From Trueperaceae bacterium (GTDB lineage: Bacteria > Deinococcota > Deinococci > Deinococcales > Trueperaceae), in contig JAXHNB010000002.1 of assembly GCA_034520945.1 (NCBI GenBank), positions 224,001 through 288,000 on the forward strand: a stretch of 64,000 nucleotides of DNA, written 5' to 3'. Numbering within the stretch: position 1 is the first letter of the stretch; each line of letters starts with the position of its first letter. A program made the position numbers and the translations under genes. Under the pieces are notes generated by a model, which did not search any database, had not been told where the DNA came from, and saw only the letters and a list, made by a program, of their open reading frames with translations. Of the stretch, positions 54,591 to 58,639 are shown piece after piece.

Positions 54591-55430
54591 CCTTTTTGCC
54601 GCTCGCGAGAGTGGCGCGAACGATGACAAGCGAAGACGAAGCGAGACATCCGCGCTCAGACGATCTTTTTGCCGTTTTCGGCCGATCGGATGAGCGTAAG
54701 CGCAAAGCCGGATTTCGATCCGGAACTGCGCGTCCAACTCTTAGTACTTGCGACCGAGAAGGTTACGTTACTAAGGGCGCACGGTGGATGCCTTGGCACT
54801 CGAACCGATGAAGGACGTGGCTACCTGCGATAAGCCTCGGTGAGCTGGAAGCAAGCTTTGACCCGGGGATGTCCGAATGGGGAAACCCACGCGAGCGAAC
54901 CTCGCGTACCCATGCGTGAATCCATAGCGCATGTGGAGGGAACCCAGGGAACTGAAACATCTTAGTACCTGGAGGAAAATAAAGAAAACTCGATTCCCTT
55001 AGTAGTGGCGAACGAAGAGGGAACAGCCTAAACCGCCTCCTACGGGGGGCGGGGTCGTAGGACCGGCAACGTGGACCGGAATGCCTAGTCGAAGCGCACT
55101 GGAAAGGCGCGCCAGAGCGGGTGATAGCCCCGTAGACGAAAGGCGTGAAGGCCTAGCCGGCACCTGAGTAGCGCGAGCCACGTGGAATCTCGCGTGAATC
55201 CACGGGGACCACCCCGTAAGGCTAAATATTCCGAGTGACCGATAGCGAACCAGTACCGTGAGGGAAAGGTGAAAAGCACCCCGTGAGGGGAGTGAAATAG
55301 TACCTGAAACCGTGCGCTTACAAGCAGTCACAGCCCTATGCCCGTCTTCGGACGGGAACGGGTGGTGGCGTGCCTATTGAAGCATGATCCTGCGACTTAC
55401 TGACAGTGCCGAGTTTAAGCCGTTAGGCGG

Positions 55431-55463
<33 letters not shown>

Positions 55464-56731
55464 CAGGCGCTGTTAGTAGACCCGAAACCGGATGAGCTAG
55501 CCATGGCCAGGATGAAGCTCCCGTAACAGGGAGTGGAGGTCCGAACCCGTTGAGGTTTAAAACTCTTGGGATGAGCTGTGGTTAGGAGTGAAAAGCTAAC
55601 CGAATCCGGAGATAGCTGGTTCTCCCCGAAATAGCTTTAGGGCTAGCCTCGGGGGTTCACCGTTGGTTGTAAAGCACTGATTGGGCTAGGGGGCCCACCA
55701 GCTTACCAAACCCTGTCAAACTCTGAAGGCCAACGGTTCATACCCCGGGAGTCAGTCCGTGTGAGCTAACTTTCACGGACAAGAGGGAAACAACCCAGAC
55801 CGCCGGTTAAGGTCCCCAAGTCATGGCTGAGTGGAGAAGGATGTGGAGACGCTAAGACAGCTAGGAGGTTGGCTTAGAAGCAGCCATTCCTTGAAAGAGT
55901 GCGTAATAGCTCACTAGTCGAGCGTCTCTGCGCCGAAGATGATCGGGGCTAAGCCATGCACCGAAACCGCGGCAGTGCAGCCAAGCTGTACTGGGTAGGG
56001 GAGCGTTCCGTAGGCCGTCGAAGCGGTACCGCAAGGAGCCGTGGAGGTATCGGAAGTGCGAATGCAGGAATGAGTAACGATAAGAAGGGTGAGAATCCCT
56101 TCCGCCGAAAGCCCAAGGGTTCCTGAGCAAGGGTCGTCCTCTCAGGGTTAGTCGGGACCTAAGGCGAGGCCGAAAGGCGTAGTCGATGGACAGCAGGTCA
56201 ACATTCCTGCACCACTTTCGTGGAGCGATGGGGTGACGCATTAGGATAGGCCAACCGGAGCCACGGTCGAGCCCGGCGGCGTGCGAAGCCAGGGAGGATA
56301 GGCAAATCCGCCTCCCGTGTTGGTGACGTACGTCGGGAAGGCCCTACGGGGCTGATAACTGGTCGAATCCACGGTGCCAAGAAAAACCTCTAAGTGTCGA
56401 AGCGAGAGTGCCCGTACCAAAACCGACACAGGTGGGCGAGTGTAAGAGCACTAAGGCGCGCGAGAGAACTCTGGTCAAGGAACTCTGCAAAATGGCCCCG
56501 TAACTTCGGGAGAAGGGGTCCCACGCGTACGGTGATCATTCGTGATTGCCGGAGGTGGGCACAGTTAATTGGCTCCAGCGACTGTTTACCAAAATCACAG
56601 CACTCTGCGAACCCGAGTAGGGGATGTATAGGGTGTGACACCTGCCCGGTGCCGGAAGGTTAAGGGGAGGCGTGCAAGCGCCGAACTGAAGCCCCGGTGA
56701 ACGGCGGCGGTAACTATAACCGTCCTAAGGT

Positions 56732-57357
56732 TAAGTAACGCTAGCCTTAGTAAAACCGAACCATATGCGGGAAACTCCTCGAAAACCGTCCGGTACTCGC
56801 CGATGCTTCGGCAGTAAAAATCCGGCGGACATGGGGACGATCCGCAGGGAAGACTTGGTGAAGATGCCAAGAACCCTCAGAGACCATACGTTCGGGATCG
56901 ACGGGTGAAGCTCGACAGCCAATGGGTGGTCGGGTTCGTGGATGGCGAAGGGTGTTTTCACGTCGGGATTGCAACGCATGCCGACATGGCGGTGGGACGA
57001 CAGGTCCTGCCCGAATTCACCGTCGTCCAGCACGAGCGCGACGTCCAGGTGTTGCACGCGCTGAAAACGTTCTTCGGCTGCGGCGTGGTTCGAAGCAACC
57101 ACGGCGAGCGAATGGCGTATCGCGTGCGCACGTTCGAGCACCTGCACGATGTCATTGCCCCGTTTTTCATGAAGCACACCTTGAAGACGATGAAGAACGT
57201 CGACTTCAGAAAGTTTCGACAGGTGTTGCTCGCGATGAAGGACGGTGAGCACCTGACGCCGGAAGGCGTCGACAAGATCCGCCGATTGGCGGCGGAGATG
57301 AATCGTGGTCGATCAAGATAGAGTCCGGCCCTCCTGGAAACAGGATGGGATGAACCG
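56732..57357 (+). mobile_element. Group I intron at 23S position 1931 (626 nt)
   Basis: Interrupts CCTAAGGT^AGCGAAATTCC; P1 ctaaggU/Gccttag; P10 cgct/agcg; P3 ccgaac/gttcgg; P tgcggg, Q atccgcag, R tcagagac, S aagatagagtcc; ends in G. Confidence 0.95.
56905..57321 (+). CDS. Single-motif LAGLIDADG homing endonuclease (intron-encoded)
   Basis: WVVGFVDGEGCF motif, F.VVQH..D..VL, FFGCG.V, PFF; 138 aa; stop overlaps the S element. Confidence 0.93.
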   Translation: MKLDSQWVVGFVDGEGCFHVGIATHADMAVGRQVLPEFTVVQHERDVQVLHALKTFFGCGVVRSNHGERMAYRVRTFEHLHDVIAPFFMKHTLKTMKNVDFRKFRQVLLAMKDGEHLTPEGVDKIRRLAAEMNRGRSR

Positions 57358-57473
57358 AGCGAAATTCCTTGTCAGGTAAGTTCTGACCTGCACGAATGGT
57401 GTAACGACTGGAGTGCTGTCTCGACCAGAGACTCGGTGAAATTGAACTGGCCGTATAGATGCGGCCTACCCGC

Positions 57474-57505
<32 letters not shown>

Positions 57506-57658
57506 ACAGCTTGATGTTGGCGTTTGGACCGATCCGTGTAGGATAGGTGGGAGACTGGGAAGCCAGGCCGCTAGGCTTGGTGGAGTCATTGGTGAAATAC
57601 CACCCTGATTGGTTTGGCCGTCTAACCTGCGCCCGTTATCCGGGCGAGGGACAGCGTG

Positions 57659-57690
<32 letters not shown>

Positions 57691-57832
57691 CAAAGCGTAA
57701 CGGAGGCGCACAAAGGTTCCCTCAGCACGGTCGGAAATCGTGCATAGAGCGTAAGGGTACAAGGGAGCTTGACTGCGAGACATACACGTCGAGCAGGGAC
57801 GAAAGTCGGTCCTAGTGAACCGGTGGTACCTC

Positions 57833-57886
<54 letters not shown>

Positions 57887-57994
57887 ACCGCCCGAGAGTT
57901 CACATCGGCGGCGGTGTTTGGCACCTCGATGTCGGCTCGTCATATCCTGGGGCTGGAGAAGGTCCCAAGGGTCCGGCTGTTCGCCGGTTAAAAT

Positions 57995-58046
<52 letters not shown>

Positions 58047-58160
58047 GTGGGCGTAGGAAAACTGAGGAGAGCTGTTCCTAGTACGAGAGGACCGGAATGG
58101 ACGCACCGCTGGTTTCTCGGCTGTTCCACCAGGGGCATATGTCGAGTAGCTACGTGCGGA

Positions 58161-58195
<35 letters not shown>

Positions 58196-58389
58196 GACTC
58201 CAAGATGAGTTTTCCCACCTCCTCGTGAGGGTAAGTCCCCCGGTAGACCACCGGGTCGATAGGCCGGGAGTGTACGCACGGCAACGTGTTTAGCTGACCG
58301 GTACTAATCGGACGAGGACGTAACCTTTTTTGCAATCATCCTCGAGTTGGATGGCGTTTCGCTTCGTCTTCGCATTGTCACTATTTGTT

Positions 58390-58512
<123 letters not shown>

Positions 58513-58563
58513 ATTTTGCGAACGGAAGGCACCGACCCTGCGGGTGGGTGCCTTCTCGTCCTC

Positions 58564-58639
<76 letters not shown>

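Follow-up and report, generated by a model that had tools for sequence, protein, structure and literature searches.

What interrupts the only 23S rRNA gene of a bacterium assigned to the Trueperaceae (Deinococcota), and might the interrupting element still be able to splice and to move? The question is raised by a stretch of 64,000 nt (the window in what follows), which starts at base 224001 of contig JAXHNB010000002.1 (contig C2 of assembly GCA_034520945.1), and in which a 23S rRNA gene carries an insert of 626 nt. A first-pass annotation, made from the letters alone, had read this insert as a mobile group I intron at the site called L1931, encoding an intact LAGLIDADG endonuclease and residing in a gene of probable Deinococcota origin. 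The follow-up described here leads to a similar view: the insert is very probably a genuine mobile intron of the L1931 family, which would splice and home by the textbook mechanism.

Position of the Insertion

54761–58327, + strand: 23S rRNA gene, the host gene (RF02541, 2724.8 bits, full length, 1–2925)
56732–57357, + strand: group I intron of 626 nt, inserted after U1931 and ending with G at 57357 (junctions read directly; RF00028)

The alignment of the gene to the 23S model (RF02541) is unbroken apart from a single insert of ~629 nt in domain IV. By direct reading, the upstream exon ends with ...CCTAAGGT at 56731 and the downstream exon opens with AGCGAAATT at 57358 (a longer stretch of the 3′ exon from 57358 reads AGCGAAATTCC); joined after removal of the insert, the exons give the universal ...CCUAAGGU-AGCGAAAUU... 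segment of domain IV. For numbering, rrlH of Escherichia coli K-12, annotated with 2904 nt, served as reference (motif start L115:2683, gene start L115:760); another E. coli 23S annotation of 2590 nt was too short and was dropped. The T ending CCTAAGGT is position 1931 of E. coli, which places the insertion between U1931 and A1932 and bears out the exact site given in the first-pass annotation. The Rfam model for group I introns (RF00028, Intron_gpI) matches 56699–57347 with 53.1 bits (E 1.2e-10 for the 64-kb window), above its gathering score of 50.

Architecture of the Ribozyme

Whether the insert has the anatomy of a working ribozyme was addressed with an alignment (A1) of 79 introns, comprising 77 loci with both junctions, the intron of the window, and the copy L004 from a genome of the same genus; 78 of these sequences are distinct. 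The structure tested consists of 72 pairs in 17 helices, P1 to P10:

56725–56750, + strand: P1, exon CTAAGGT (56725–56731) with guide GCCTTAG (56744–56750); 100% paired in 78 distinct sequences
57358–57361, + strand: P10, AGCG in the 3′ exon with guide CGCT (56739–56742) in the P1 loop; 4 bp
56756–56761 with 56890–56895, + strand: P3, CCGAAC with GTTCGG; six pairs, five of them compensatory, 100% paired
56766–56846, + strand: P4-P5-P5a-P5b domain, 93–100% paired
56766–56771 with 56841–56846, + strand: P4
56776–56780 with 56833–56837, + strand: P5
56786–56793 with 56822–56828, + strand: P5a, compensatory changes in 7/7 pairs
56796–56803 with 56808–56814, + strand: P5b, adjoining an A-rich internal loop
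56847–56849 with 56874–56876, + strand: P6, 100% paired
56854–56858 with 56867–56871, + strand: P6a, 95.4% paired, 5/5 pairs compensatory
56880–56886 with 57321–57326, + strand: P7, GAGACCA (A56881 bulged) with GAGTCC; forms a pseudoknot with P3
56897–57313, + strand: P8, ATCGAC (56897–56902) with GTCGAT (57308–57313); the endonuclease gene lies in its loop
57327–57328 with 57355–57356, + strand: P9.0, GG with CC, enclosing P9; 100% paired, both pairs compensatory
57329–57336 with 57341–57349, + strand: P9 hairpin with GAAA loop (57337–57340); 89–97% paired

Standard pairs occupy 94.8% of the 5591 pair cells, compared to 28–48% when the partners were slid by one to three columns, a control which is biased on the percentage paired because one of the aligned sequences was itself the source of the structure. 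There is no such bias in the count of compensatory pairs; changes on both sides were found in 42 of the 72 pairs of the 79-sequence alignment, mostly in P3, P5a, P6a, P9.0, and P9, and none of 500 shuffles reached any of the observed measures of pairing or covariation. The core helices thus covary across the 79 introns, and the P3, P4, and P7 motifs noticed earlier are part of a conserved fold. In P8, the inner pairs are 100% paired and covary; the outer ones reach 76–85%, in a region where the alignment is poor. As drawn from the sequence, P1 runs directly to P3 with no P2 between them.

The elements that mark the two splice sites are present as well. The wobble pair U56731·G56744 in P1 has its U·G counterpart in all 78 distinct sequences, P10 is paired in 87.6% of cells across the family, and the terminal G57357 is invariant in the alignment; all three features had been named in the first-pass annotation and could be read from the sequence. 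The first four pairs of P7 are canonical (G-C, then the bulged A, followed by G-C, A-U, and C-G; family counts 78, 78, 77+1, and 78 of 78), and G56882-C57325 among them presumably takes the place of the guanosine-binding pair of other group I introns.

From this anatomy, a course of splicing may be proposed. The intron would be transcribed within the 23S precursor, where its RNA would fold into a P1–P10 ribozyme lacking P2, with an extended P5 domain and a pseudoknot of P3 and P7. A free guanosine bound in P7 would attack the 5′ splice site marked by the U·G pair; the terminal G57357, placed by P9.0 and P10, would then replace the guanosine, and the exons would be ligated.

The last two pairs of P7 had been suspected to be non-canonical, and they are: the window has C56885·A57322 at the fifth and A56886·G57321 at the sixth pair. 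The fifth is U-A in 73 of the 78 sequences and non-standard in five, namely in the window, its congener, G315, Thermopetrobacter, and one Planctomycetota locus. The sixth is U-A in 56 sequences and A·G in 21 of 78, a G in the 3′ strand always being accompanied by an A in the 5′ strand. An alternative register, in which A57322 is bulged, would pair C56885 with G57321.

The Endonuclease

56905–57321, + strand: gene for a single-motif LAGLIDADG homing endonuclease, 138 aa, uninterrupted, with GTG start (open reading frame (ORF); PF00961)

The ORF sits in the P8 loop, and its last six codons cross the 3′ strand of P8 and J8/7 to end with the stop codon TAG at 57319–57321. G57321 is therefore doubly constrained, being both the first base of the 3′ strand of P7 and the last base of the stop codon, which is TAA in most relatives.

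Another observation concerns the same overlap. Positions 56887 (J7/3) and 57318 (J8/7), columns 382 and 852 of the alignment, covary though they are unpaired: of the sequences with a G in J7/3, 18 have a G in J8/7 and one (L009) has an A, and the other letters in J7/3 occur with A. Column 852 doubles as the third position of an Arg codon. Either a tertiary contact or common descent may underlie the covariation.

The protein matches LAGLIDADG_1 of Pfam (PF00961) over residues 9–107 with E 5.2e-22 (79.1 bits; cut-off 23.1), and the ‘putative homing endonuclease’ 5gkk_A of the PDB (170 aa) over residues 2–136 with E 9.7e-50; no paper on 5gkk came up in a full-text search. As the match to solved LAGLIDADG enzymes is full-length, the fold can be regarded as settled. 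The motif VVGFVDGEG is found at residues 8–16 with its acidic residue present; E15 is, judging from solved relatives, presumably the catalytic residue. Among 85 relatives, 58 residues are conserved to at least 95%; the window's protein has every one of them, GFVDGEG included, and the intact 138-aa LAGLIDADG frame in P8 that had been annotated initially is hereby confirmed. Pairwise ratios of nonsynonymous to synonymous substitution rates (dN/dS) against relatives range from 0.07 to 0.24 with a median of 0.127 (48 of 81 pairs, those with unsaturated dS), which shows that the ORF is under purifying selection.

The 138-aa protein would most likely act as a homodimer. Such a dimer would cut intron-less 23S sites in the DNA of other cells, and repair of the break would copy the intron into them (homing).

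Host, Copy Number, and Integrity of the Assembly

58393–58639, + strand: 5S rRNA (58393–58509; RF00001, 105.6 bits) and tRNA-Gly(GCC) (58564–58639; ARAGORN), downstream in the same operon

The genome consists of 10 contigs with 3.47 Mb and is 97.4% complete. It contains one 23S rRNA gene, one intron recognized by RF00028, and one 16S rRNA gene, which is found on another contig (G000:C5:86379–87903; L116), apart from the 23S-5S-tRNA-Gly(GCC) unit on contig C2. Thermus and Deinococcus typically have their 16S gene apart from 23S-5S.

Metagenome assemblies often have rRNA genes in the wrong bin, and with a contamination of 5.13% the question arises whether the interrupted gene is foreign to this genome, brought in by a chimeric assembly or a binning error. 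This is scarcely credible. The window encloses the gene and continues beyond it for ~5.7 kb to its own 3′ end. The exons share 96.4% identity with the 23S gene of a same-genus genome, 93.0% with that of a metagenome-assembled genome (MAG) labelled ‘Trueperaceae bacterium’ and 92.4% with that of a ‘Deinococcota bacterium’ MAG; other phyla all remain at or below 79%. By their contig coordinates these two MAGs are G319 and G326, which by genome-based kinship both belong to family f1, as does the window. Thus, the sequences support a Trueperaceae-like member of Deinococcota as host, and the phylum suggested in the first-pass annotation stands. Also arguing against a chimera, though not independent evidence as DNA run X1 is possibly the source sample of the window itself, is a short-read contig from that run (681 nt, one difference) which spans both exon-intron junctions. 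The depth in X1 is 19.5 on the intron and 25.9–28 on lineage-specific parts of the exons. In run X3 of a second study, a close relative was found across both junctions.

Five contigs of X1 join the uninterrupted ...GACGGTCCTAAGGT straight to the 3′ exon. Other members of that community would accordingly have empty L1931 sites and be potential targets for homing.

Does the Intron Splice?

As only one 23S gene is present in the genome, ribosomes can form only once the intron has been removed, and it is on these grounds that we infer splicing. Six RNA runs matched, each with 0.12–0.16 of the sampled words, and two of them (X16 and X21) were examined. In both, reads reach very great depth over the conserved segments of the exons and hardly cover the intron or those parts of the exons that are lineage-specific. 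One contig of X21 (depth 2.7) crosses the 5′ junction with two differences; it could stem from precursor RNA, DNA carry-over, or a relative. In another X21 contig, 56731 is followed by three different letters and then by 57361 (28 letters on its shorter side); it was rejected as evidence for splicing because any intron-less 23S gene of another organism would give the same.

Several points have to be set against the interpretation as a splicing and homing element. Ligated exons assignable to the host were not found in runs X16 and X21. The match to RF00028 exceeds the gathering score by only 3 bits, which is partly due to the general model misplacing P1 in exon helix 69. Among the 120 ribozyme columns with a conservation of 90% or more, the window deviates at two: position 56839 in J5/4 is G (A in 76 of the 79 sequences), and position 56885 in P7 is C (T in 74 of 79). 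Both substitutions are in sensitive places and could weaken self-splicing. On the side of the protein, the gene starts with GTG, no strong ribosome-binding motif was seen upstream of it on reading the sequence, and translation from the rRNA precursor is assumed. Moreover, the two-fold symmetry of the intron-less site is weak, with four of 11 pairs symmetric about the insertion point and no more than five of 11 about neighbouring centres; it lends recognition by a homodimer no positive support.

The lack of ligated host exons in X16 and X21 and the two rare core substitutions might also be taken to mean that the insert is excised without ligation, or is retained, which would leave a fragmented or expanded 23S rRNA like those with intervening sequences processed by RNase III. 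Such an outcome is very improbable in view of the complete and covarying group I core with its U·G pair, P9.0, P10, and terminal G. Known intervening sequences lie in variable helices; here, the interrupted part of domain IV is single-stranded and universally conserved, and 626 unspliced nucleotides at this place would be hard to reconcile with a working ribosome.

The same substitutions allow for another scenario, in which the ribozyme has become weakened in this sub-lineage and purifying selection maintains the endonuclease, the sole 23S gene being occupied already, because it is now required for splicing as a maturase. LAGLIDADG maturases have been shown for some fungal mitochondrial introns, and J5/4 is the element that docks the wobble pair of the splice site. 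The weakened P7 would then be shared by the window, G010, G315, and Thermopetrobacter, the change in J5/4 (56839) being confined to the window. This is improbable, but if true, it would present a bacterial rRNA intron on its way from a selfish element to a host-dependent ribonucleoprotein. Self-splicing followed by exon ligation is still the reading we prefer, and apart from the J5/4 and P7 substitutions, its only oddities, the intron is a well-preserved member of a known and widespread family with a textbook mechanism.

Distribution of L1931 Introns

Relatives of the endonuclease were found 177 times in species-representative genomes, and the best 80 of these 177 were used for comparison of the loci. 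In 77 of these 80, an insert of 616–712 nt is flanked by both junction motifs, L081 and L084 have the 5′ junction only, and L052 has neither; the 80 loci come from ~16 phyla, and their endonucleases are 63–75% identical to that of the window. A metagenome protein collection holds 4384 clusters at E ≤ 1e-20; most of the 120 clusters listed have exactly 138 aa, the closest being 77% identical, and the window's own endonuclease is absent from this collection of 5.8 billion clusters. rRNA introns have been called very rare in bacteria (Haugen et al. 2007, PMC1995217), and the first-pass annotation described bacterial 23S group I introns as rare. The number of relatives, 177 in genomes and thousands of metagenomic clusters, contradicts the printed statement.

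About 17 of the best 80 loci have a second insertion upstream, which ends before ...AACGGTCCTAAGGT at or near L1917 and leaves an exon of 14 nt between the introns (L007, L010, L017, L027, L036, L039, L047, L050, L054, L059, L061, L063, L064, L070, L075, L077, and L083). No second insertion of this L1917 type is present in the 23S gene of the window.

Within Deinococcota, 364 genomes were searched. Close orthologues of the endonuclease (66–75% identity) are encoded by nine of the 127 other genomes of family f1, and none were found in the other five families of the phylum. The uninterrupted site was sought with a sequence pattern and found in the following numbers of genomes:

f1: 36 of 127 genomes searched
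f2: 39 of 125 genomes searched
f3: 7 of 23 genomes searched
f4: 46 of 68 genomes searched
f5: 2 of 19 genomes searched
f6: 0 of 1 genome searched

None of the nine f1 genomes with a close orthologue has the uninterrupted pattern; the other genomes were unscoreable, for the most part because draft assemblies lack the rRNA genes. L1931 introns of 257–278 nt without an ORF are present in three more f1 genomes (G282, G268, and G309); that of G282 (L096/L102) was scanned with Rfam and gave 76.1 bits with RF00028, and the junctions in G268 (L097) and G309 (L101) were read by motif. In sum, 12 of the 48 scoreable f1 genomes besides that of the window have an L1931 intron, nine with and three without the gene. 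The first-pass annotation knew of none from Deinococcota. It is right in that a printed description of an L1931 intron from this phylum was not found in the open-access papers searched; as to the sequences themselves, the intron is already present in at least 12 other Deinococcota genomes.

Introns located upstream, after the helix-69 motif (~L1917), and encoding LAGLIDADG proteins are present in one genome of f3 and five of f1; these proteins are only 30–34% identical to that of the window. The same 23S gene of G282 contains yet another endonuclease gene farther downstream. Other Deinococcota genomes with 23S introns are G282 (L096/L102), G268 (L097), G309 (L101), G304 (L098), G345 (L099), and G188 (L100).

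In the congener (G010; L094/L004), the endonuclease frame is open, with nine of the 58 conserved residues changed and a branch length of 0.9; from its sequence this copy looks like one in decay, that of the window being intact. Empty, occupied, decaying, and ORF-less states thus exist side by side in family f1, as predicted by the cycle of gain and loss that Haugen et al. (PMC1995217) quote.

It is possible, if rather unlikely, that the window's intron is fixed and still splices, with the endonuclease being an inactive relic or a maturase-like helper and the element immobile in this lineage. The sole 23S gene is already occupied, leaving no target in the cell's own genome; the congener's copy decays, three family members have lost the ORF, and the rare changes in J5/4 and P7 could be offset by a protein helper. 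On the other hand, the protein of the window has lost none of the 58 conserved residues, the acidic one of the motif among them, its dN/dS is low, and the 36 f1 genomes with an empty site offer targets within the family. An intron that is still mobile remains the favoured view.

Descent of the Endonuclease

The first-pass annotation regarded the element as a marker of horizontal transfer. A quick maximum-likelihood tree of 85 endonucleases (138 columns) is poorly resolved; host phylum labels are strongly clustered on it (28 changes, compared to 57.4 when shuffled). Seven of the ten f1 endonucleases form one group (support of 93 in the Shimodaira-Hasegawa-like approximate likelihood ratio test, SH-aLRT); the window and its congener are placed at an unresolved fork next to this group, and G350, also from f1, falls elsewhere, together with a sequence from Gemmatimonadota. 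A single clade of nine of the ten f1 endonucleases is not rejected (approximately unbiased test, p-AU 0.87), and the tree constrained in this manner is 30 log-likelihood units better than that of a short free search; the test is weakened in that G350 was dropped from the constraint after the tree had been seen. A recent horizontal arrival of the window's copy is, as far as the tree of these sequences can tell, neither shown nor excluded, and that part of the earlier claim is not borne out.

Identical or nearly identical endonucleases do occur under different phylum labels: L081 and L084 (Omnitrophota/Bdellovibrionota), L034 and L059 (Chloroflexota/Thermodesulfobacteriota), and L068 and L076 (Omnitrophota/Planctomycetota). 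Either very recent transfer or rRNA contigs binned wrongly would account for these pairs.

Implications

For genome annotation, a ‘gap’ of 626 nt in the one 23S gene that this Deinococcota genome has is accounted for, and with it a protein-coding gene that gene callers skip. Deinococcota can be added to the printed list of hosts of L1931 introns, and family f1 could serve to study the gain and loss of homing introns in free-living bacteria. The enzyme is a candidate meganuclease for a universally conserved site of 23S rRNA genes; there is no sign of unusual specificity.

Comparison with Known Systems

How, then, does the intron relate to elements already described? On the level of the protein, the solved relatives of the I-OnuI family are monomers in which two domains are fused and whose targets are asymmetric, whereas the protein of the window is a single domain; each half of the two-domain enzymes I-SmaMI, I-OnuI, and I-PanMI aligns with the whole of it. 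A single-motif LAGLIDADG enzyme from L1931 which cuts the intron-less site is I-CpaI from the chloroplast large subunit (LSU) rRNA gene of Chlamydomonas pallidostigmatica, the host being an organelle in this case.

In Archaea, group I introns at LSU/1931 have been found with the IB4 model of GISSD (Nawrocki, Jones and Eddy 2018, PMC6125680). They share the site with the window's intron, and some have LAGLIDADG genes; they differ in the domain of life. Labels for the subgroup are not uniform in the literature, as L1931 introns were termed ‘very similar to IC1’ but without P2 in the account of the bacterial ones (PMC1995217), and the IB4 model was used for the archaeal ones (PMC6125680).

Genes of the LAGLIDADG_1 family have also been described at position 1931 of 23S genes from the candidate phyla radiation (CPR/Patescibacteria) (Tsurumaki et al. 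2024, PMC11270868). Site and Pfam family of the endonuclease are the same as in the window; unlike the single insertion found here, CPR genomes, as portrayed there, usually have several per rRNA gene. A locus labelled Patescibacteria (L054) encodes an endonuclease with 70% identity. The string ‘Deinococc’ has no occurrence in the main text of that paper.

A close parallel is provided by the L1931 introns with single-motif LAGLIDADG genes from Simkania, three Thermotoga species, and two Synechococcus strains, as they are described by Haugen et al. (PMC1995217). Judged by these descriptions, the window's intron is set apart by the phylum of its host and by its protein of 138 aa, compared to 143–167 aa; the nearest named stand-ins for these introns among the loci compared, the Chlamydiota MAGs L060, L072, and L079, have proteins with 63–69% identity to that of the window. 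Several features are alike: the introns have 654–700 nt there and 626 nt here, they occupy the same site, lack P2, have a complex P5, and carry a single-motif gene in a peripheral loop with the ORF extending into the core of the ribozyme.

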